A stretch of 64,000 bases of DNA. Source: a virus. The stretch spans positions 48,020 through 112,019 of IMG/VR virus record IMGVR_UViG_3300032334_001937. One strand, given 5' to 3'. A model generated the notes under the pieces. The model was not told where the DNA came from and made no database searches. It saw only the letters and a program-made list of their open reading frames with translations. Positions 21,646-63,097 of this stretch are shown piece after piece (the stretch's first letter is position 1; each line of letters begins with the position of its first letter). The position numbers and the translations under genes are program-made.

Positions 21646-23037
21646 TTAGTTATATAGGTCGGAGAATTTGAGGAAACGTCCGCCCCATAGGGATTTTTGA
21701 ACTGGACTTTCATCCAATTCCTGCACGATCTCGCCTAGATCGCCAGACTTGCGGAAAGCTGTGTCCTTTTCTACGGAATCAACTCGCTTTCCAATTTCAT
21801 TAAAAGTACCCTTGATCTGATTTACATCAGTTGTTGTGGCATCAAGAGACTTCTTCATATTAGCAACTTCATCACTAAGTGACTTAATTGTTGCTGTTAA
21901 ATCGCTAAAGGCATTAGTAACAGATTCTTTGATATCAGAAATTGCAACTGCAATTACTTCGTCTGACTTAGGAGCCATTGGCTTCTTGTCTTCTGCTTCT
22001 TCATCCCCTGGCTTTTCAGTCGCAGCATCTGCAGCAGTTTCTTCATCAGATGGCTTTGCAGCTTTTTCTGTTGAATCTTCTTCAGTTGCATCAGACTTCT
22101 TGTCGCACTTGCATGCATCCATAGCCTTTCCACAATCTGGACATGTTGAAGCCTTTGTGACTTCCTGGGTATTAGCATCTGCCTCTGGAGCGACCTCTGA
22201 CTTTGCTACTTCTACTGCTGCTTCTGTTTCAATAACTTCTGCAACTGCATCTGTGTTTTCTGTCATGGATTGTACCTCCTTGTTAATCTTAGAAGTATTA
22301 ATGCCTTTAGCACTATCAACTAAGAATTTTATCATGTTTGTTTTTTCTGAGTCATTCTTTTCTACAAAACCAATGTTTTTCATTTCGTTACCACTTACTG
22401 GGCTAACGTATGTTTCTTCATCAGAAGTTAGAACAATTCCTGTTTCTTCATCATAGAAAACATTTTCTACAACTACATCTGCAAGGTCTCCCTTAATTGT
22501 GTCTACTCCGTCAACCTTTTCAACTGACATAATGCTTGCGAACTGATTTGCTGGGGAGTCTACAAGACTCAACTCAACAAGATCATAGTCCTTAATAACT
22601 CTAATTGTTTTATCTAGTTCTTCGTTATATGCGTCATCCCACTTATTCATTCTACCGCCGATAGAAAAACCAGTGTATGTTCCATCAAGAACTTTTTCCC
22701 ATGCATCTGCTGCACCTTTTGAAATGTATGTAGAAACATAAATGCCTTTGTAAAACTTCTTTGACTCTGGATCAAAATACTTTTCTTCTTTAAAAGAAAT
22801 CATCTTGCCAACTGCTGAAGGTTGATGCATTTCACGAATATTTCCACGGAACTTTGCAAAAGCGCTCATTGATGCTTCTGTTGTAACAATGTCATATTGC
22901 TTGTCAACATTGTCAAGGGAGGCAAAGCCAGACACAATTCTTTTCTCAATATCTACTTTTCCAAAGGGCATTGATAAGCGAACATTGTCGCCGTCAGTGG
23001 TCCAAAAAGCCTTATTTATGTTCATATCGTAATCCAT
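21646..23037 (-). CDS. Prohead protease fused to an acidic/coiled-coil scaffold region
   Basis: IREMH, TGFSIGG, ELSLVDSPAN motifs; acidic linker containing CPDC..CKC; coiled-coil C-terminus. Confidence 0.9.
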   Translation of the reverse strand: MDYDMNINKAFWTTDGDNVRLSMPFGKVDIEKRIVSGFASLDNVDKQYDIVTTEASMSAFAKFRGNIREMHQPSAVGKMISFKEEKYFDPESKKFYKGIYVSTYISKGAADAWEKVLDGTYTGFSIGGRMNKWDDAYNEELDKTIRVIKDYDLVELSLVDSPANQFASIMSVEKVDGVDTIKGDLADVVVENVFYDEETGIVLTSDEETYVSPVSGNEMKNIGFVEKNDSEKTNMIKFLVDSAKGINTSKINKEVQSMTENTDAVAEVIETEAAVEVAKSEVAPEADANTQEVTKASTCPDCGKAMDACKCDKKSDATEEDSTEKAAKPSDEETAADAATEKPGDEEAEDKKPMAPKSDEVIAVAISDIKESVTNAFSDLTATIKSLSDEVANMKKSLDATTTDVNQIKGTFNEIGKRVDSVEKDTAFRKSGDLGEIVQELDESPVQKSLWGGRFLKFSDLYN

Positions 23038-43147: not shown

Positions 43148-43702
43148 ATGAGAGAAACTAAAGCGTGGTTAGGGGTAATGTTATTGGTGGTGTCGTCTGC
43201 TGTGTTTGCAAATAATGCAAATGCAGAAAGTCTTACTACTAAAAATAATTTACTAAACAAATCAGCTCAGAATCAGAATACCGCCCACAAAGCGGTTTTT
43301 TTCGTTTCTAGAGCAGAAATGTTAAAAAAGTATGAGAATAAGCCAGTTCTTTCAGACAGAGATTTGGCTTTGATGCTAAAGGCAGTAGGGTTTAAAGGCC
43401 AGGACTTGAAAGAGGCTTGGGCAGTAGCAAAGAAAGAGTCTAATGGGCAACCAATCAGATTCAATGGAAACACAAAAACAGGAGATAGTTCTTATGGGCT
43501 ATTTCAGATCAACATGATTAGCGATCTAGGTCCAGAGCGTCGTGATAAGTTTAACCTTGACACAAACTTTGACTTATTGAATCCTGTCGTTAATGCAAAA
43601 ATTGCATACCATATGAGCAATGGTGGTAAGAACTGGTCTGCTTGGCATGGCATAACAGCCAAAACCAAGATGTGGATAAAGAAGTTCCCGCATAACATTT
43701 AA
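43148..43702 (+). CDS. Lysozyme-like/transglycosylase cell-wall hydrolase with an N-terminal signal peptide
   Basis: AKKES (catalytic Glu), SYGLFQINM, NAKIAY...GGKNWSAW; hydrophobic N-terminus with ANA site; AGGAGG RBS. Confidence 0.82.
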   Translation: MRETKAWLGVMLLVVSSAVFANNANAESLTTKNNLLNKSAQNQNTAHKAVFFVSRAEMLKKYENKPVLSDRDLALMLKAVGFKGQDLKEAWAVAKKESNGQPIRFNGNTKTGDSSYGLFQINMISDLGPERRDKFNLDTNFDLLNPVVNAKIAYHMSNGGKNWSAWHGITAKTKMWIKKFPHNI

Positions 43703-47966: not shown

Positions 47967-48140
47967 TTATTTTGTACCCTGTAGGTAGCCGTCAATTCCA
48001 AGCAAGTCGCAAGTGACTTTCACACGCTGGTTCTTTTGTAGTGTGCTCTTGTATAGCTCTATAAAGTCATATACCTCTTGCTTACTCATGAGGCTAATGC
48101 TGTGAGTATTGCCTTGCATTGATGTGAGTGTGAGTCTCAT
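47967..48140 (-). CDS. Hypothetical protein, paralogue of 50253..50435
   Basis: Absent from the track. MRLTLTSMQGNTHSISL...VKVTCDLLGIDGYLQGTK. Confidence 0.65.
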   Translation of the reverse strand: MRLTLTSMQGNTHSISLMSKQEVYDFIELYKSTLQKNQRVKVTCDLLGIDGYLQGTK

Positions 48141-50435: not shown

Positions 50436-50641
50436 TGGTACTTATTGAACACAATCTCCGTTTCGTTACAGAATTAGACGAAACAAATCCAATGGCTATT
50501 CGTTTGCTTAATCTTGAAAAAGAAATGCAGGTTGAAATGCTTGAAGGCTTGCTAAAAGAACTTCTTGCACCTATGATTCAGCCAGCAATTGACGAAGTTA
50601 ATGAAGGCAATTCATGGGCAACGCTAAGGGTGGCAAAATAA
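50435..50641 (+). CDS. Hypothetical protein
   Basis: TAATG coupling. Confidence 0.65.
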   Translation: MVLIEHNLRFVTELDETNPMAIRLLNLEKEMQVEMLEGLLKELLAPMIQPAIDEVNEGNSWATLRVAK

Positions 50642-50642
50642 A

Positions 50643-50819
50643 ATGATGACACGCAAAGACTATGTAAAGGTCGCTGATATTCTTGCAGGTTATCATGTTG
50701 CAATGATTGACAACTTTTGGTGGGAAGACTTGCTAAATGATTTTGCGCTGATGTTTGAAGAAGACAATCCAAATTTCAAACGTGAAAAATTTATTGAAGC
50801 CTGCGAAGCTGGAATGTAA
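50643..50819 (+). CDS. Small helical phage protein (MTRKDY...DNPNFxxExF type)
   Basis: Absent from the track (58 aa); homologous to the C-terminal half of 30941..31396. Confidence 0.7.
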   Translation: MMTRKDYVKVADILAGYHVAMIDNFWWEDLLNDFALMFEEDNPNFKREKFIEACEAGM

Positions 50820-50823
50820 AAAA

Positions 50824-50852
50824 GGATCCTGAGCATGATTTAAAACTGCTTG
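50824..50852 (+). ncRNA. H-type pseudoknot motif, copy 1
   Basis: GGATC-CTGAGCAT-GATTT-AAAAC-TGCTT. Confidence 0.65.
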
Positions 50853-51296
50853 AAGTTTCAACTAAAAACTCGGGGCGTTTTCCACAGGTTTATCCACAGG
50901 GTGATAAGTTATCCACATACCTTTACGTGTGATTAAAAACACACCCCAGATTCCCCAGATTTGGCGTTTAAGATTTGTATTTGTCACCCCCATAGTGTAG
51001 GATATTTATATCAAGTTAATTAAAGAAAGAAGGCTCCCATGACCGATGTATGTCTTGAGTGTAATGAAAATCCTGTAGATATAACTGAACTTTATTGCTT
51101 CCGTTGCTATCTTGACCGTGAAGTAGAAGCGATGATAGAATATGACTTGCTTGACCAACTATGGCTTACAGAGGAGGCTAAATAATATGGATTTCTACGA
51201 TGAATACTATGAGTCAGATATGATTCGCTCAGACGCTAAATCATGCTATTGCAAACTTCATTCAATCTGCACCAACTGTAAGGAGAGTTACAACTA

Positions 51297-51512
51297 ATGG
51301 AATATTTATACTCAGTATCTTGCACCTATGACGGAGACCGCTCACCTCACTGGGTTGGTCGCTATGATAATGCTATTGACGCAGTTAATTCATGGAATAA
51401 GTTTATTGACTGGGGCATGGCTAATGAATATGCAACTATCAATTTCTCAGAGCCTAATGGCAAAATGCACACCAAAATCTTTTATCGCAACGGAAATGTA
51501 GGGGGTAAGTAA
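51297..51512 (+). CDS. Hypothetical protein
   Basis: Homologous to the N-terminal half of 30941..31396. Confidence 0.7.
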   Translation: MEYLYSVSCTYDGDRSPHWVGRYDNAIDAVNSWNKFIDWGMANEYATINFSEPNGKMHTKIFYRNGNVGGK

Positions 51513-51653
51513 TGCCAGTATTTCAATTTACCACTTTCATAGATATAAAGGCTAAAGACTATGACTCAGCAATAGAAGCGTTTGACAATAACTTAAAATA
51601 TGGAAATATTAATCGCAGCGATGTATATGTCGCAGATATAGAGGAGAAATAAT

Positions 51654-51989
51654 ATGGGTTCAGTTACAGCACTAGGAATTCAGGATTCAGTTCTTGACTT
51701 GGAGACTCAGATTCTCTATCACCTTAAAGGTAATCACTATCCACCTGTCCCCGCAGAAATGGTGAAGCCTTGCATTGACGCTATTGACGCATACTATGAA
51801 GAAGATTTTGACCGCATGATTGGCATGCCAAAGGTTGGAGATTTTCAGATTCTCTACAAGGGTCAAACTTGGGCGCCTGCACACGCAGTTGTAGAGCAAC
51901 ACCACCTTCACACTTTCATTGAACCTGTAGATGACTGGCAAGATGGTTCAGATGACTTCCCACTCTCGCTAGAATATGATGAGGAGTGA
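51654..51989 (+). CDS. Hypothetical protein
   Basis: HLKGNHYPPVP motif; GAGGAG RBS. Confidence 0.7.
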   Translation: MGSVTALGIQDSVLDLETQILYHLKGNHYPPVPAEMVKPCIDAIDAYYEEDFDRMIGMPKVGDFQILYKGQTWAPAHAVVEQHHLHTFIEPVDDWQDGSDDFPLSLEYDEE

Positions 51990-51992
51990 TAA

Positions 51993-52235
51993 ATGACTGC
52001 TACAATGAAAACCATGGAACTAGTATGGGCTGATAAATTAACACCAGGGTCGTTGATGGTTGATGATCTAATCAAGGTTGATGGCGAGCTGTATGAAATA
52101 CTCAGCATTGATTCTGATTCAACAGGTGATAATTATTTTATTGATTGCGTTGATGTGTATGGTGAACGTGACACAATAACAATTGCACATGATGTTTATG
52201 TTGATTTATATGTATACATAGACGCAGAAGAATAA
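51993..52235 (+). CDS. Hypothetical protein (SH3-like, beta-rich)
   Basis: GAGGAG RBS; L.VDDLIKVDG pattern. Confidence 0.65.
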   Translation: MTATMKTMELVWADKLTPGSLMVDDLIKVDGELYEILSIDSDSTGDNYFIDCVDVYGERDTITIAHDVYVDLYVYIDAEE

Positions 52236-52316
52236 AAAACGGCTCGGGGCAAAATGTCCAATTTGTCCAATTAAGATGAGCTTGCATTTTTCCCACATTT
52301 TTGCTAAAATTATTAT

Positions 52317-52457
52317 ATGAAAAAGACACCTGAAGAGTTACGTAAACTTATGGAATTACGTCGTTCTAATGCAGCGTCTGCGATCCCAAATAAAAAAAAG
52401 TACAATAGGAAAAAATGTCAGTCCCTATTGCTACAATTAAAGAAAGAAAGCGAGTAA
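52317..52457 (+). CDS. Small basic protein (LRRSNAA...KKKYNRK)
   Basis: Leaderless start 6 nt after TGCTAAAAT; 46 aa. Confidence 0.55.
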   Translation: MKKTPEELRKLMELRRSNAASAIPNKKKYNRKKCQSLLLQLKKESE

Positions 52458-52463
52458 CCCACC

Positions 52464-53186
52464 ATGTCAAAATTACTTCGTTCAAAAGATAGGAAAGTAG
52501 CAAATGCCGTCACACCTAATGGAAAACAAGCAAGTATCGCTAACACATTCGGCTTACCCGCAGGGAAAGCTTACTCATGTCCTGGAGCGACTAGCGTATG
52601 CGAAAGTGTTTGCTATGCTGGCAAGTTGGAAAAAGTATTCCCAACTGTAAAGGTTAATCTACTTCATAACTGGGAACTATTGCGTAATGCAGACTTAGAA
52701 ACTATGGCTAATCTACTGGATGAAATGATTTCAGACTTTAGAAAAGATTGCGAAAAGCGTAATGCTAAAATGCTATTCCGCATTCACTGGGATGGCGATT
52801 TCTTTAGCGATACTTATGCCTATGCATGGAAAGCCGTAATCATGCTTAATCCAGATATTCAATTCTGGGTATACACCCGTGTGAAGTCTGCAGTACTTAT
52901 CCTTAAGGACATTGCTAATCTATCTTTATATTATTCTACAGATAGCGAAAATAAAGATGAGGGCATTGCACTTAAAAAAGATCATGGAGTATCCCTTGCA
53001 TACCTTGCCAAAAATTTTGCAATAGGACAAGCAGACATGAAAGAGCTTATAGGAAAACCTGGGGCTAAATGCCCTGAGAATAAAAAGGCTATTCCACTTA
53101 TCTCACAGCAAGGGTCTGCCTGCGCTAGTTGCAAGTTGTGTATTTATGAGAAATCTGATATAGTGTTTAGCGCAACCAAAAAGTGA
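52464..53186 (+). CDS. Gp88-like Cys-rich protein
   Basis: FGLPAG..SCPGAT..C...CYA, FRIHWDGDFF, WVYTR and C-terminal CP...CASCKLC. Confidence 0.75.
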   Translation: MSKLLRSKDRKVANAVTPNGKQASIANTFGLPAGKAYSCPGATSVCESVCYAGKLEKVFPTVKVNLLHNWELLRNADLETMANLLDEMISDFRKDCEKRNAKMLFRIHWDGDFFSDTYAYAWKAVIMLNPDIQFWVYTRVKSAVLILKDIANLSLYYSTDSENKDEGIALKKDHGVSLAYLAKNFAIGQADMKELIGKPGAKCPENKKAIPLISQQGSACASCKLCIYEKSDIVFSATKK

Positions 53187-53382
53187 GGGGAACTATGATT
53201 AGCCTAATTATCCTATCAGTAACTATCCTATTCTTTATCCTATTAGGGGCAGGGCTAGGGCACAAGTGATGTATATCACACAGAAAATGTCTCAAAATAT
53301 GAGATTATTTGCAGAGCGATTTGTATTTCTAAGATTTTTCAGATATACTAGAAATATCAACAACTACAGAAAAGGAAACAAA

Positions 53383-53544
53383 ATGACAGTAGCAACAGCA
53401 ACATACAAGGTCGGCGACCTCTTTACAACACAGAAGTCAAAGGTCACAGGGCAGATTCTTGAAATCAAGCCAACAGACAAGAACACAGTTCGTGTGAAGT
53501 TAGATGTAAATGGCAACACACGCTGGACAACTTGGAAGGCGTAA
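53383..53544 (+). CDS. Hypothetical protein
   Basis: MTVATATY start after an AGAAAAGGA RBS. Confidence 0.65.
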   Translation: MTVATATYKVGDLFTTQKSKVTGQILEIKPTDKNTVRVKLDVNGNTRWTTWKA

Positions 53545-53593
53545 GCCTTTCATAGTCGCTAATGTACAGCGACTCTAAATAAGTGGCAGGAAC

Positions 53594-53621
53594 TATCCTG
53601 AGCAAGATACAAAAAGGCTCA
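53594..53621 (+). ncRNA. H-type pseudoknot motif, copy 2
   Basis: TATC-CTGAGCAA-GATA-CAAAAAG-GCTCA. Confidence 0.6.
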
Positions 53622-53681
53622 CTTTAATGTCAGTACCACCCCCTATACTAGAAATATAACCTACAAAAGAAAAGGAACACC

Positions 53682-54104
53682 ATGTCAAGAAGCAAAGCAA
53701 TCTCAGTTAAAATCGCAACACCAAAGGTAATCAAGGCACTAGAAGATGCACTCTCAAAGTTGGAAAAAGACTATGCAGAGAAAGAAGCCAACGAAGCAAA
53801 GTATCAGAAGGCTTATGATAAGTATCGCAAGGAAATTGCTGACTATGCAATCGCAAACATCAAGAAGGCAGAAAACCTACGCACCAACTATCGTTCATGG
53901 AATAATAGCCTGAACATTGACTTTGACCTCACAGTATCAAAGGATTCACTTCCTACTGAACCTGACCGTGACTTCACAACTATGAGCGACCATGAATATC
54001 GTAGTCAGAAGGAAGAAATGTCAAACGCAATTCGTATCCTCAAAATGACAGATGAAGAAGTAGTTTCTACATCAACTTATCAAGCGGTTGCTCGTTATCT
54101 CTAA
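53682..54104 (+). CDS. Hypothetical coiled-coil protein
   Basis: Promoter and RBS; 140 aa. Confidence 0.75.
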   Translation: MSRSKAISVKIATPKVIKALEDALSKLEKDYAEKEANEAKYQKAYDKYRKEIADYAIANIKKAENLRTNYRSWNNSLNIDFDLTVSKDSLPTEPDRDFTTMSDHEYRSQKEEMSNAIRILKMTDEEVVSTSTYQAVARYL

Positions 54105-54182
54105 ATGAGGTTGGGTGGGGTGTAAAAGCCCCACTCCAATTCGCCAGGCTGATTAGGGCGATCATAGAAATACTATAGAGCA

Positions 54183-54237
54183 AGGTTACTGCCGACCTAA
54201 AGACGCAGACCACCTGAGCAAGTGCCAAAACTGCTCA
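54183..54237 (+). ncRNA. Tandem pseudoknots: a ToxI-like knot plus motif copy 3
   Basis: AGGTT-ACTGCC-GACCT-AAAGAC-GCAG, then CAC-CTGAGCAA-GTG-CCAAAAC-TGCTCA. Confidence 0.6.
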
Positions 54238-54401
54238 CCAATATTTATTCAAGTGACCGCATAAATATGCGCCCCGAGCTGTGTGATTTTTCTCACATGC
54301 ATTAAGTCTCATTATTTAAGATTCCTGGGTTTACGTATTGCACTTGTCAGGGCCCGCTGCTAGACTTATATTAATAACAAACAAAAGAAAGCAGGCCCCT
54401 C

Positions 54402-54839
54402 ATGGACGCAGTACAGGTAGCAACAACAGAGTTTCTTAACGCACAGATTGCAGCATTACAGGAAGCGCTAGAGAAGAAGGATGCGATGATTATCTCATTG
54501 CAGGACCGCTCTTCAGATAATTCTCAACGACTATATTCAGAACAGCGTTCACACCAAAGCACCAAGGACGCAGTAAAAGAATATGTTCTTGAATCTCTTA
54601 AGGACAATTCAATGTCTCATGACATTGCAGAAGCACTTGCACAGATTTGTGACTTTGAATTAACTAAGACTGTTACCGTTAATGCAGTTGTAGAGTTTGA
54701 AGTTGAGATTGAAGTAGCGTTTGATGTTGACGCAGATGATGTTGCTAACACTCTTGAATTCAGTGTTGATTCATTTGATTATTCAATTGATGACTACAAC
54801 GTTGACACACGTCAATTAAATGCAGAGGATAATATTTAG
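54402..54839 (+). CDS. Hypothetical protein (coiled coil plus acidic beta domain)
   Basis: Promoter upstream; 145 aa. Confidence 0.75.
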   Translation: MDAVQVATTEFLNAQIAALQEALEKKDAMIISLQDRSSDNSQRLYSEQRSHQSTKDAVKEYVLESLKDNSMSHDIAEALAQICDFELTKTVTVNAVVEFEVEIEVAFDVDADDVANTLEFSVDSFDYSIDDYNVDTRQLNAEDNI

Positions 54840-54885
54840 TAGGGGGCTACTAATAGACATGCCGAATGTCTTTAAACTAGGTAAG

Positions 54886-54978
54886 GGCCCTGAGCACGGC
54901 CACGTAAACTGCTCCACTAGAGGTAATGCCAGTGCTATAGCGAGGCATCCGTTCCTGAACATGAATTTAAACTGTTCA
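54886..54978 (+). ncRNA. H-type pseudoknot motif, copies 4 and 5
   Basis: GGCC-CTGAGCAC-GGCC-ACGTAAAC-TGCTC and GTTC-CTGAACAT-GAAT-TTAAAC-TGTTCA. Confidence 0.65.
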
Positions 54979-55147
54979 CTTTTTATTGCAAAAATCTCGG
55001 GGGGCAAAACTTTCATTTGTCAAGTTTAAGAAGGGTGTTTAAGATCACAGGGAAAATGTCCAATTTGTACACATCTAACTATCCTGATTTGCATATGTCA
55101 CCCCGTCCTGCTATACTTAAATTTCAACAACAGAAAGAAGAAAACTC

Positions 55148-56170
55148 ATGGCACATGACCTAGAAATACAAAATGGAAAAACATCGTTCGCATCATTTCG
55201 TGAACCTGCATGGCATGGATTGGGTACCGTATTCACAGAAGAAAAGACAACCGCAGAAATGCTATCATTAGCAAATCTTGACGGTTGGAATGTTCGTCTT
55301 GAGGATTTGGAAACCCCATCACACCTAACAAGCGACAAGGCGTATCAGTACGTCTTGCGTACTAACCCTACAGATAATTCTCAGACAGACATTCTTGGTG
55401 TCGTTGGTGAGCGTTATCACGTAATGCAGAATGAAGATTTATTCTCATTTGGTGACAATATTCTTGACGGTGGTGGACGTTGGGAAACCGCTGGCTCAAT
55501 CAAGGGTGGACGTGTTGTGTTCGGTGCATTAGCACTAGAGCGTGAGACAGTCCTAGACCCTAGCGGTGTTGCAGATAAGGTAAAGACTTATTTACTTATC
55601 AACACATCACACGATGGCTCAATCGCTATTCAAGCAAGTATCACACCTGTTCGTGTTGTATGCGCTAACACTCTTAACCTTGCTCTTGGTGGCGTAGGTC
55701 GCAAGAAGAACAAGGGTATCAAGCAATCTTTCAAGATTCGCCACACTCAGACCGCTAATGGTAAAGTACAGATTGCACGTGAGACTCTTGGTCTTGCTAA
55801 TGCTTACATGGACGAATTTGATATCATGGCTAAGGCTATGTTTGAGAAAGAAGTCAATGCTAAGTCTTTCAATGATATTATTCTCGCTGCTTATCCTAAG
55901 CCAGAAAAAGACGCTAAGGGTGCAATCAAGAAGTGGGAAAATAAAATTGACATGGTAAATGATATTTACACAGGTGAATTTAACGGCATGATTGCTGGTA
56001 ACGCTTGGGGTGCTTTCAATGCACTTACAGAACGCCTTGATTGGTACCGCACAGCAAGAGGTGGTTCTAACGAATCTATCCTTGCAAGTGCAAGCGGATT
56101 TGACCCTGCAATTAACGCAGAGAAGAATCGTTTGCTTAAAGTTGTGCAGAATGTTATGCAACTAGCATGA
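55148..56170 (+). CDS. DUF932/DUF945 (LGT_TIGR03299-like) protein
   Basis: PAWHGLG, ETAGSIKGGRVVF, SHDGS, TPVRVVCANTL, RHT, WGAFNALTE motifs. Confidence 0.88.
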   Translation: MAHDLEIQNGKTSFASFREPAWHGLGTVFTEEKTTAEMLSLANLDGWNVRLEDLETPSHLTSDKAYQYVLRTNPTDNSQTDILGVVGERYHVMQNEDLFSFGDNILDGGGRWETAGSIKGGRVVFGALALERETVLDPSGVADKVKTYLLINTSHDGSIAIQASITPVRVVCANTLNLALGGVGRKKNKGIKQSFKIRHTQTANGKVQIARETLGLANAYMDEFDIMAKAMFEKEVNAKSFNDIILAAYPKPEKDAKGAIKKWENKIDMVNDIYTGEFNGMIAGNAWGAFNALTERLDWYRTARGGSNESILASASGFDPAINAEKNRLLKVVQNVMQLA

Positions 56171-56174
56171 TACA

Positions 56175-56202
56175 ATTTCCTGAGCATGAAATAAAACTGC
56201 TC
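56175..56202 (+). ncRNA. H-type pseudoknot motif, copy 6
   Basis: ATTTC-CTGAGCAT-GAAAT-AAAAC-TGCTC, ending 3 nt before the tRNA. Confidence 0.65.
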
Positions 56203-56205
56203 TCT

Positions 56206-56279
56206 GGTCTGTTAGCTCAGTTGGTTAGAGCGCTACCCTGTCACGGTAGAGGTCGTGGGTTCAAGTCCCATACAGATCG
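56206..56279 (+). tRNA. tRNA-Asp (GTC)
   Basis: Cloverleaf: GGTCTGT/ACAGATC acceptor, CTACC-CTGTCAC-GGTAG anticodon arm, GTTCAAGTC T-loop; CCA not encoded. Confidence 0.93.
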
Positions 56280-56822
56280 CAAGCGTAAATGGGGCCCCGA
56301 GAAAATTTGGACATTTGGGACATTTAACTAATTGTATTAATATAAAAACCTTATTAAGAAAGACTTGACTTTTTCCCTGAAATTTGCAATAATTAATACA
56401 TGACCACAACATACAAACCATATACCATACACGAACTCGTAGAGGAAATCTATGAGGACAACTTCTCTCACTTTGATTTCATGGAAAACATGAACGGTGG
56501 GGATTGCGATTGTAATCTACATAATGCCATGAACCTTATTGTCAAGTATTGGGGAGAGTAATGCTAGGATATACCATAGAAGATATTAACAAAATACAAG
56601 AGTGTCTTAGTTTACTTAGCAAGGCTGATGGCATACCACAAGACCTTTGTGATGGATTAGAAATGGCTAACTCATTCTTTGATGGACTATGGGCAGAAGG
56701 GTACTTTGACTAATGCATAAACATCATTGGTTATCTTCAGATGTACCAGGGGTATATACCTGTACATTTAATTGTGGGTTTGGATATTGGAATCCTAAGA
56801 CAGAACAAATAGAGGAACAATA

Positions 56823-57436: not shown

Positions 57437-57699
57437 ATGAATCAATCACACTAGACCCATACCTACAACGCATGGTAGACGCAGGCATGGACGGTGCAGA
57501 TATAATGCACGGTCATCTTAAAACTCTCATGGTAGAGGCTGAACAACAACTAACTCTTGCTCAAGAAGCAGAGGATGAATCAGAAGAAGCAATGGACTCT
57601 ATGGAACGTAGATACTGGGAAGGTGTATGCGAAGCCTATGGAGAACTATATAGTTTAACTTATGCCATAGCGTTTGCTAAGGATAAGGTTAAGTCTTGA
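57433..57699 (+). CDS. Hypothetical protein
   Basis: ATGA coupling; ERRYWEG motif. Confidence 0.65.
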   Translation: MNESITLDPYLQRMVDAGMDGADIMHGHLKTLMVEAEQQLTLAQEAEDESEEAMDSMERRYWEGVCEAYGELYSLTYAIAFAKDKVKS

Positions 57700-61239: not shown

Positions 61240-61475
61240 TGCTCAAAATAGCAGTAACACAAGCAAATAATATATTAGATTCTTGTCTTGGTCCAGAAGT
61301 AATTAAAATAACAATACGACCTACATCTATATTCTCACATAATGACACAATCACATATGTAGAGCCATTTGTCTATGTCAATGGTGGAATATATGACAGT
61401 GAAGGCACTCTTGTAGATGCTGGATATTACGATACCGCTCTTTGGGCGATTACATATAACGGAGGATACGCATAA
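61239..61475 (+). CDS. Hypothetical protein sharing its C-terminal motif with 39534..39992
   Basis: VNGGIYDSEGTLVDAGYYDT..W....NGG versus VQGGTYNEAGALVEAGVYNT..W....DGG. Confidence 0.65.
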   Translation: MLKIAVTQANNILDSCLGPEVIKITIRPTSIFSHNDTITYVEPFVYVNGGIYDSEGTLVDAGYYDTALWAITYNGGYA

Positions 61476-62095
61476 TGCAAGAATTTGAGAAAGTCTACCT
61501 TGAAGAAAATATTTATTATATAGAAAACTTCATGTCTGATAAAGAGATAGAAGGCGTTATGTCAATGGACTTAGAGTGGAACCTTATACGCAATGACTTC
61601 CATCAAAATATCTTAAATAGCATAGTTACCAATCAAGATCAAAGACAATACTTCAAGAATGAAGTTGAAGATAAGATTAGATTAGTAGTTGACAATGAAA
61701 ATCAAAAGCTAAGATCAACTAGCTTACTTACAAAATATGTGCCAGATCAAGATAAGTGTTTGGGTGAAGATTGTGGCTGTCAAGGACATGACCTATCTTG
61801 GCATTACGAAAACCATCCTGGTTGTGACTATGAATCAAAATGGATCAGATGGGGAATTGTCCTATACTTCAACGATGATTACGAAGGCGGAGAGTTGGTC
61901 TTCCAACATAAGCCTGTTGAGATCAAGCCTAAAAAAGGCACTCTCATGGTCTTTCCAGCAACCGAAGAATATAGCCATGCAGTCAAGAAAGTATCTGGAA
62001 ACGATAGATATGTATTTTCAGCATTTGTTTACGCTAAAGACTATTGGGAACTATTAAATCGCTCAGGCTTAATTGATCCCTTATTTGTATTTTAA
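61475..62095 (+). CDS. 2OG-Fe(II) oxygenase (HxE variant)
   Basis: WHYE...YFNDDYEGGE...HAV...RY. Confidence 0.85.
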   Translation: MQEFEKVYLEENIYYIENFMSDKEIEGVMSMDLEWNLIRNDFHQNILNSIVTNQDQRQYFKNEVEDKIRLVVDNENQKLRSTSLLTKYVPDQDKCLGEDCGCQGHDLSWHYENHPGCDYESKWIRWGIVLYFNDDYEGGELVFQHKPVEIKPKKGTLMVFPATEEYSHAVKKVSGNDRYVFSAFVYAKDYWELLNRSGLIDPLFVF

Positions 62096-62551: not shown

Positions 62552-63097
62552 ATGAAGGTTTGTAGCGGTTGTGGAATTGAATATGATTTAGACAACTTCT
62601 ACAAGACTGCCACAAAATGTAAGTCATGCCATAAGGCCTATTCTGTTGCTTGGAGAAAAGCTAATCCAGACAAAATAAAAATTCATGAGAAACGCAAGAA
62701 TAAAAAAGCTTGGGCTGTTCAAAGACAGGATAAAGAATATCTTTTAAAGAAAACCTTATATAGGCAATCTAGAAAAGATATTTATAATGCTAGAGCTAAA
62801 CAATGGAACAAAGACAATAGAGATAAAACTCGTTTATATGTATTAAAATCTAAGTTAAAAAGAAAGGGTGTAAAAACTTTTTTTATCCTTAATAGGGAGA
62901 TTGATGCTATTTATAGCTCTATCTGTGCTTTTTGCAAATCCTCAGAAAATATTACTATTGATCATATTATTCCTTTATCCCGTGGGGGAAACCACTCAAT
63001 TGGTAATTTACAGCCATTATGCGGGTCTTGTAATTCTAGTAAAAAAAATAGGTTTATATCAGAATACAAATACTACCGATCAAAGATGGTAAAGTAA
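62552..63097 (+). CDS. HNH endonuclease
   Basis: CAFC...TIDHIIPLSRGGNHSIGNLQPLCGSCNSSK; N-terminal zinc finger. Confidence 0.92.
   Translation: MKVCSGCGIEYDLDNFYKTATKCKSCHKAYSVAWRKANPDKIKIHEKRKNKKAWAVQRQDKEYLLKKTLYRQSRKDIYNARAKQWNKDNRDKTRLYVLKSKLKRKGVKTFFILNREIDAIYSSICAFCKSSENITIDHIIPLSRGGNHSIGNLQPLCGSCNSSKKNRFISEYKYYRSKMVK

Follow-up and report, generated by a model that had tools for sequence, protein, structure and literature searches.

The DNA analysed here (the window) is a 64,000-nucleotide (nt) stretch of IMG/VR virus record IMGVR_UViG_3300032334_001937, positions 48,020 to 112,019, and comprises the last 64 kb of this 112,019-bp record, which carries 123-bp terminal repeats and has a G+C content of 37%. 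Because its portal protein is 45% identical to the portals of large Streptomyces phages, the source is probably, as judged from sequence, an actinophage, and the G+C content suggests a low-GC host. Between 49 and 64 kb the window contains many small plus-strand open reading frames (ORFs) with sigma-70-like promoters, opposite a long minus-strand structural block. This region harbors six plus-strand copies of an element of approximately 28 nt (Table 1). A preliminary description of the same DNA had proposed that these repeats form H-type RNA pseudoknots; all six are present on the strand claimed, and they are true copies of a conserved H-type RNA pseudoknot.

Table 1. Pseudoknot copies and neighboring features of the window. 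S1 and S2, stems 1 and 2; S2b, 3' strand of stem 2; scores come from a covariance model whose seed includes the six copies.
Feature	Position	Strand	Sequence and structure	Score (bits)	Context
Pseudoknot copy 1	50824–50851	+	S1 GGAUC/GAUUU (two G-U pairs), loop CUGAGCA-U, linker AAAAC, S2b UGCUU	37.9	4 nt past TAA stop at 50817–50819
Pseudoknot copy 2	53594–53621	+	S1 UAUC/GAUA, linker CAAAAAG, S2 UGAGC/GCUCA (shifted variant)	37.0	49 nt past stop at 53544; next promoter-like -35 begins ~6 nt after the copy
Pseudoknot copy 3	54210–54237	+	S1 CAC/GUG, S2 UGAGCA/UGCUCA	38.4	106 nt past stop at 54104
Sigma-70-like promoter	54344–54372	+	TTGTCA-17-TATATT		Between copy 3 and gene starting at 54402
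Formerly suspected degenerate copy	54855–54883	+	Hairpin AGACA-UGCCGAA-UGUCU, then UUAAACUA		Non-member by model
Pseudoknot copy 4	54886–54914	+	S1 GGCC/GGCC, longer linker ACGUAAAC	27.4	46 nt past stop at 54839
Pseudoknot copy 5	54951–54978	+	S1 GUUC/GAAU, S2 compensated GAACA/UGUUC	36.1	Tandem, 36 nt after copy 4; followed by CUUUUUAUU
Sigma-70-like promoter	55088–55117	+	TTTGCA-18-TATACT with TG extension		Between copy 5 and DUF932 gene
DUF932 gene (phrog_1221)	55148–56170	+			Between copies 5 and 6
Pseudoknot copy 6	56175–56202	+	S1 AUUUC/GAAAU	46.1	4 nt past TGA stop of DUF932 gene; ends 3 nt before tRNA-Asp
tRNA-Asp(GUC)	56206–56280	+			RNase P cleavage at its 5' end would leave copy 6 a 3-nt 3' tail

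The six copies share the layout S1a(3–5 nt, ending in C)-CUGARCA-W-S1b(starting with G)-NNAAAC-UGYUC(A), where S1a and S1b are the two strands of stem 1 and the base following CUGARCA is U, A or C. The layout first described thus stands in general, with two departures: copy 1 ends in UGCUU, so that stem 2 closes with a G-U pair, and copy 2 reads AAAAAG-GCUCA, its stem 2 (UGAGC/GCUCA) being shifted by one position, a variant that recurs in other contigs. A strict pattern matched the window five times against 0.74 expected from shuffles, and none of 100 shuffles gave five; one of the five, at 57539, is not a pseudoknot copy. The covariance model that the preliminary description had suggested as a check was built from a seed of 88 rows, 82 from other contigs plus the six window copies, with only stem 1 encoded as pairs. 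It recovers exactly these six copies in the window at 27.4–46.1 bits, scores that are partly by construction because the copies are in the seed; the next match reaches 9.7 bits. The supposed degenerate copy at 54855–54883 is not a member: it consists of a 5-bp hairpin followed by UUAAAC, offers no convincing stem 2 and is not found by the model. A seventh copy lies outside the window, at genome positions 22644–22671 on the minus strand, again sense to its neighboring genes.

Covariation supports both stems. For stem 1, we searched IMG/VR with the pattern CTGAGCA-N(4-12)-AAACTGCTC, which makes no demand on stem 1 and occurs in at least 120 contigs. Among the 146 matches listed, 103 have the same spacing and 136 can form a stem 1 of at least 3 bp, in many different sequences. 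The same is seen at a single orthologous site, the junction of the DUF932 gene, the pseudoknot and tRNA-Asp in related contigs, where stem 1 reads UUUC/GAAA, AUUC/GAAU, AAUC/GAUU, ACUC/GAGU or CCAC/GUGG. Stem 1 therefore behaves as claimed, varying in nearly every copy with pairing kept. For stem 2, constraining the unpaired bases and stem 1 but nothing else yielded 26 copies whose stem 2 departs from the consensus, 23 of which pair fully, and a model-derived alignment of 144 copies has no unpaired cell in the four central stem-2 pairs and both-sided changes in four of the six pairs. The compensatory change from GAGCA/UGCUC to GAACA/UGUUC noted earlier is present in copy 5. A doubly compensated form, GGACA/UGUCC (CCUGGACA...AAACUGUCC), in which two positions have changed on both strands, occurs in at least 120 IMG/VR contigs, against three contigs with the uncompensated hybrid GGACA/UGCUC and two with GAGCA/UGUCC. 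This form constitutes a second large sequence class of the knot that obeys the same placement rules and includes two copies directly before tRNA-Asn. A general pattern of a hairpin with an AAAC tail, aimed at other loop classes, gave too much noise to separate any.

The fold drawn from these data comprises a stem 1 of 4–5 bp, free in sequence apart from an invariant closing C-G pair, a loop 1 of C or CU, a single junction base (U or A) between the stems, a stem 2 (GAGCA/UGCUC) of 5–6 bp formed by the hairpin loop with the 3' tail, and an A-rich linker ending in AAAC that runs along stem 1. Either helix alone is weak (-3 to -8 kcal/mol), and stem 1 is often AU-rich. G-U pairs are common in stem 2 (GAGUA/UGCUC, GAGCA/UGCUU), which, together with the strand bias, points to an element of RNA on the sense strand; these pairs and the strict sense orientation argue against a site recognized in duplex DNA. 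Immediately after stem 2, G is depleted (5, 2 and 3% at +1 to +3). Since a G here would lengthen stem 2 at the expense of stem 1, selection appears, from these sequences, to keep the knot rather than a plain hairpin.

The element is carried by phages and prophages of Actinobacteria, Firmicutes, Cyanobacteria, Proteobacteria, Bacteroidota and Saccharibacteria, among others. Cultured carriers include the actinophages Mycobacterium phage Labelle and Arthrobacter phages Amigo and Molivia; Cyanophage S-RIM4, Synechococcus phage S-H35, Paracoccus phage ParKuw1 and Lentibacter phage ICBM1; and Lactobacillus phages phig1e, Lj771 and KC5a, Staphylococcus phage StB12, Bacillus phage Page and Geobacillus phage D6E. 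It is also found in crAss-like phages. In Labelle the knot occupies 56439–56469, and in Amigo it stands between the SSB gene and tRNA-Gly. Vibrio phage D456 carries a variant at 598–630 with CC instead of CU as loop 1, in a region annotated with tiny opposite-strand ORFs that are probably miscalls. A stricter pattern matched genomes and genome bins of bacteria and archaea from many groups, with Methanobrevibacter bins among the matches listed, and the context of these genome and bin matches was prophage-like wherever neighbors could be named. Several Saccharibacteria bins share a near-identical copy (stem 1 GGUC/GACU) approximately 175 nt past a conserved 221-aa ORF without a Pfam match; this may be a conserved prophage or a chromosomal site.

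No catalogued family accounts for the motif. At gathering thresholds, Rfam 15 reported only two tRNAs in the window, and at E ≤ 10 over 50500–56500 it gave no match corresponding to the motif; snoR64 (E 0.73), ending over copy 1, is a chance match. A family match, which would have removed the novelty, is thus absent from Rfam, and literature searches by sequence string, through surveys of structured RNAs in phages and through nuclease-resistant RNAs returned no description of the motif.

In shape, the nearest known structures are the frameshifting knots of luteoviruses and the preQ1-I aptamer. The luteovirus-type -1 frameshifting pseudoknots of beet western yellows virus (BWYV) and potato leafroll virus (PLRV) are likewise compact H-type folds of approximately 28 nt with a stem 1 of 4–5 bp, a loop 1 starting with C, one base at the junction and an A-rich linker lying over stem 1, and both they and the phage knot are found 4–10 nt past the codon that occupies the A site of the ribosome. 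However, the phage knot has a stop codon upstream and no slippery heptamer, is intergenic rather than within overlapping frames, has a stem 2 of 5–6 bp where the luteoviral stem has 3, and belongs to DNA phages of bacteria; no recoding product is possible. The preQ1-I riboswitch aptamer (RF00522) is similar in size, topology, 5-bp P1, A-rich tail in the P1 groove and short P2 at the 3' end, and covariation gives the phage element the same H-type arrangement, with its short P1 and A-rich 3' tail; the likeness is purely architectural. The RF00522 model does not match the knot at E ≤ 10. Moreover, preQ1-I sits in 5' leaders of genes for queuosine synthesis or transport, whereas the knot follows the stops of unrelated genes, precedes diverse genes and can occur several times per genome.

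These comparisons bear on whether the motif binds a small ligand, acts as a decoy for a trans-acting protein or serves as a site in DNA, possibilities that even together we consider highly improbable. The preQ1-like architecture and the high conservation of loop and linker would suit an aptamer, but neither preQ1 nor any other Rfam family matches at E ≤ 10, and an aptamer is unlikely because the motif follows unrelated gene families and has no expression platform. A decoy finds no support. Flanking genes belong to dozens of unrelated families, and DUF932, the only recurrent neighbor, is absent from four of the five cultured carriers tested, which led us to reject it as a partner protein. A type III antitoxin RNA (ToxI-like) was likewise rejected, as the copies are dispersed, differ in stem 1, have diverse neighbor genes and form only seven tandem pairs among 303 copies.

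Turning to placement, for which genes in the fetched contigs were delimited by simple ORF calls, 108 of the 127 copies in the first contig set are intergenic, with a same-strand upstream gene in 101 of the 108; 13% of copies are contained in an ORF, on one strand or the other, that is 90 aa or longer. The distance between stop codon and stem 1 peaks at 5 nt and cuts off sharply below 4 nt, and 64 of 121 copies in the first set lie 4–11 nt past the stop. The GGACA class reproduces this independently, with none of 99 copies below 4 nt and 42 of 99 at 4–11 nt, whereas generic hairpins in the same contigs fall at 4–11 nt in 13% of cases and show no floor. Four nucleotides is the stretch of mRNA held single-stranded in the ribosome entry tunnel when a stop codon occupies the A site, and the exact floor provides a natural read-out of the ribosome footprint at termination. 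In the window, the statement that the copies follow stop codons holds directly for copies 1 and 6; copies 2, 3 and 4 lie further downstream (Table 1), each behind a simple hairpin. These hairpins, at 53553–53575, 54112–54140 and 54857–54877, lack U-runs and occupy the interval between stop and knot in the three units where the two are not flush.

The stop-to-knot gap raises the possibility of an element directed at the ribosome itself, docking at the mRNA entry of the terminating ribosome and modulating termination or recycling, or blocking sliding and re-initiation. With its floor of 4, mode of 5 and bulk at 4–10 nt in two independent classes, the gap equals the spacer of frameshift-stimulating knots, and if the partner were universally conserved, the retention of sequence across phyla would be explained. 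We nevertheless regard this role as improbable: about half of the copies have no stop within 11 nt, second tandem copies and the copies of cultured Firmicutes phages (25–170 nt from the stop) cannot touch a terminating ribosome, and nothing useful lies in frame past the stop.

On the downstream side, the next start codon lies a median of 75 nt away (first set) and in a third of cases only 15–39 nt after the knot. In at least 23 cases, against approximately 0.1 expected, a same-strand tRNA (Asp, Arg, Ser, Asn or Gly) begins 2–13 nt, mostly 2–8 nt, after the knot, although many of the tRNA-Asp cases represent one conserved module behind the DUF932 gene and the independent junctions number roughly six. 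The tRNA-Asp junction reported for copy 6 is of this kind, and the order DUF932 gene, pseudoknot, tRNA-Asp recurs in related contigs. Only one tRNA was found just upstream of a knot. Knots at convergent gene ends outnumber those at divergent gene starts by 13 to 4, or by 31 to 23 when ORFs are called more strictly. Five unrelated Firmicutes phages (Lj771, phig1e, StB12, D6E and Page) have a single knot at the same syntenic spot within the late operon, after the portal, protease or minor-head genes and before the scaffold and major-head genes. The location "downstream of early genes" given in the preliminary description therefore applies to this window only; elsewhere the knot is also found in late operons.

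Downstream of every copy in the window but copy 6 come a promoter-like site and then a gene; copy 6 is followed by tRNA-Asp. A terminator scan found no canonical plus-strand terminator between the genes of the copy-bearing region or at the copies. Because a promoter-like site or tRNA-Asp comes next and no canonical terminator intervenes, the knot is the last structured element of each short transcription unit. Look-alike promoters of the form (T/A)TGTCA-N17-TA(T/G)ACT occur ahead of small plus-strand genes at ~50975, ~53627, 54344–54372 and 55088–55117, each downstream of a pseudoknot copy.

By occupying the terminator slot (gene, knot, promoter) in a region without canonical plus-strand terminators, the knot could replace a hairpin terminator as a signal for transcriptional pausing or termination. 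A U-run of at least six T within +1 to +10 follows 23 of 125 copies (18%), copy 5 among them. The remaining 82% have no U-tract, T reaches only ~40% at +3 to +10, and many copies either lie inside operons with the next start 20–35 nt downstream or are immediately followed by co-transcribed tRNAs. The low frequency of U-runs leaves a classical intrinsic terminator unsupported, and we consider a terminating or pausing role of any kind very improbable. Across contigs, terminator-like sites occur in 10% of knot-bearing intergenic regions and 14% of others.

The preliminary description listed, without ranking, a nuclease block, a processing or termination signal, a small-ligand aptamer and a protein decoy. 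Context does not favor the aptamer, the decoy or the classical terminator; it favors a nuclease block or end-defining element, because the knot abuts stop codons, immediately precedes tRNA genes and separates gene ends from promoters. From the observed fold, conservation, placement and spread we infer, tentatively and with somewhat less than even confidence, that the knot is a compact barrier to decay, capping the upstream message at its 3' end; the resistance to nucleases and its direction are the conjectural parts. We propose that each copy would act in cis in the 3' untranslated tail of the upstream gene. Read-through transcription, an endonucleolytic cut or RNase P cleavage at a following tRNA would expose a 3' end, and 3'-to-5' exonucleases would trim back to the knot and stop there. 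The knot would sit as near to the stop codon as the terminating ribosome permits, leaving no naked RNA between the translated region and its cap, and where a tRNA adjoins, RNase P would leave a tail of 2–13 nt (mostly 2–8 nt) that may be too short for 3' exonucleases to engage. A barrier of this kind would explain the anchoring to stop codons with a ribosome-sized floor, the fusion to tRNA 5' ends, the tandem copies and the position ahead of promoters in the window.

Several observations weigh against this proposal. The helices are individually weak, and resistance would have to come from tertiary contacts. A generic barrier leaves the conservation of loop and linker across phyla unexplained. 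The position before scaffold and major-head genes in Firmicutes phages would better suit protection of a downstream, highly expressed segment, and the short distance to the next start codon in a third of cases points the same way. Finally, the frequencies of terminator-like sites given above indicate that the knot neither accompanies nor excludes them.

The last of the positional arguments leads to the opposite polarity, in which the knot would act as a roadblock to factors moving 5' to 3', halting RNase J, RNase E in its 5'-end-dependent scanning, or ribosomes that slide in from upstream, so that the RNA downstream is protected, much as by exoribonuclease-resistant RNAs such as the coremin motif in eukaryotic RNA viruses. 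Besides the Firmicutes arrangement, where D6E and Page leave no room for a promoter after the knot, the proximity to start codons and the tRNA junctions would fit this polarity, and triplexes of the linker on stem 1 in frameshifting knots resist unwinding from the 5' side. However, the promoters between knot and next gene in the window mean that primary downstream transcripts there would lack the knot, anchoring to the upstream stop is far commoner than anchoring to the next start, and the carriers include a phage of Vibrio, which is not known to have RNase J. A host-range comparison directed at dependence on RNase J scored few candidates (1 of 151 genomes in Gammaproteobacteria, 7 of 151 in Bacilli). 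On balance, we consider a roadblock of this polarity rather unlikely.

In placement and possible function, the nearest systems are resistant RNAs of the coremin type and 3' stabilizers such as REP elements. The coremin motif (xrRNA_C) and its Watson-Crick variant share with the knot a short hairpin closed by C-G, a loop that begins with a pyrimidine (C in the likeness relevant to a roadblock) and a UAAAC-U spacer (PMC10520033, PMC10321173); a small loop-spacer pseudoknot has been proposed for them, and they too lie in 3' untranslated regions or between genes, sometimes in several copies. The hairpin-1 loop of coremin obeys the rule YGAD or YGNNAD (PMC10520033), and the 8-nt loop of the knot, CUGARCAW, with U in second place, falls outside it. 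Stem 2 of coremin is non-canonical or 3 bp long, whereas that of the knot has 5–6 Watson-Crick pairs. Between the conserved coremin spacer GUUAAACUAC and the linker NNAAAC followed by U, only UAAAC-U is common, and the full spacer TTAAACTA is not enriched at knots (80 occurrences against ~170 expected from composition). Coremin acts on Xrn1 in eukaryotes and needs a second hairpin directly downstream, and plain H-type knots of the frameshifting kind did not stall Xrn1 (PMC10321173), which counts against the roadblock. A second hairpin is not consistently present after the knot: the 40 nt downstream have a mean z of -0.32, with only weak folds in 135 of 290 cases (47%).

The likeness to coremin invites a broader proposal, namely that the knot is to phages what exoribonuclease-resistant RNAs are to eukaryotic RNA viruses, a mechanical block that needs no protein and abuts the footprint of the ribosome. 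Such knots would split polycistronic phage messages into separately decaying segments in hosts ranging from Actinobacteria to Firmicutes, Cyanobacteria and Saccharibacteria, and if this is true, the coremin likeness would reflect a shared solution or a shared origin. We consider this unlikely.

Parallels in placement are also offered by elements known to stabilize 3' ends or intercistronic regions, namely REP elements, the RNase III-site hairpins of T7, the upstream pseudoknot domain of tobacco mosaic virus (TMV) and the MALAT1 triple helix, the last being released by RNase P at a tRNA-like structure (mascRNA). Like the knot, these elements are sense-strand, lie just past stops or at cistron borders and are sometimes arranged in tandem, and they delimit mRNA decay; the order of knot and then tRNA mirrors that of MALAT1 triple helix and then mascRNA. 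None of them shares the sequence or fold of the knot. REP elements and RNase III sites are simple hairpins whose sequence is species-specific, whereas the knot, whose resistance we infer, keeps one sequence across phyla.

The tRNA junctions also admit a reading in which the knot marks cistron borders for a universal enzyme, RNase P or another endonuclease, that would cut polycistronic phage RNA there. Distribution over bacterial phyla and Methanobrevibacter bins suggests a universal partner, fusion to tRNA 5' ends is recurrent, and the stacked helix of 10–11 bp would resemble an acceptor/T-arm minihelix. However, no equivalent of the T-loop is present, and stem 2 runs on into ACC in 41 and into ACCA in 19 of 303 copies, the numbers predicted from single-position frequencies. 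We accordingly give such a recognition signal little credence. The same lack of ACCA enrichment led us to reject a tRNA-like acceptor pseudoknot of the turnip yellow mosaic virus (TYMV) type. Because the motif fails the defining tests of each family with which it was compared, it is an uncatalogued, very widespread cis-acting phage RNA.

The near-constancy of this 28-nt fold among phages whose bacterial hosts differ so widely points to a general layer of control over phage gene expression that has so far gone unstudied. If the knot does block nucleases, it would be a first example of programmed nuclease resistance in prokaryotic viruses and would offer synthetic biology a portable and very small mRNA stabilizer or insulator. 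The motif can in any case serve as a marker of gene ends and strand when genomes of uncultured phages are annotated.

The early block contains genes for a mycobacteriophage GP88-family protein, a 2OG-Fe(II) oxygenase and an HNH endonuclease (52464–53186, 61475–62095 and 62552–63097). A search of the 7-kb region against cultured phages for near and distant DNA similarity gave matches limited to the GP88-family gene and one tRNA. Six copies of the E. coli-type DnaA box TTATCCACA lie in the window, where 0.8 would be expected, at 43671 (minus strand), 48999, 49041, 49811 (minus strand), 50890 and 50909; these boxes cluster in intergenic regions of the small-gene block, and two of them lie 40–65 nt past pseudoknot copy 1. 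An operator-like 17-mer, AATGTCCAATTTGTCCA, is found upstream of early promoters, with six matches at up to three mismatches against 0.45 expected, and may, on sequence grounds, be the binding site of a phage regulator. Its sites at 52253–52269, 55055–55071 and 56308–56324 (the last on the minus strand) each stand beside a G-rich box, CTCGGGGC or GCCCCGAG.

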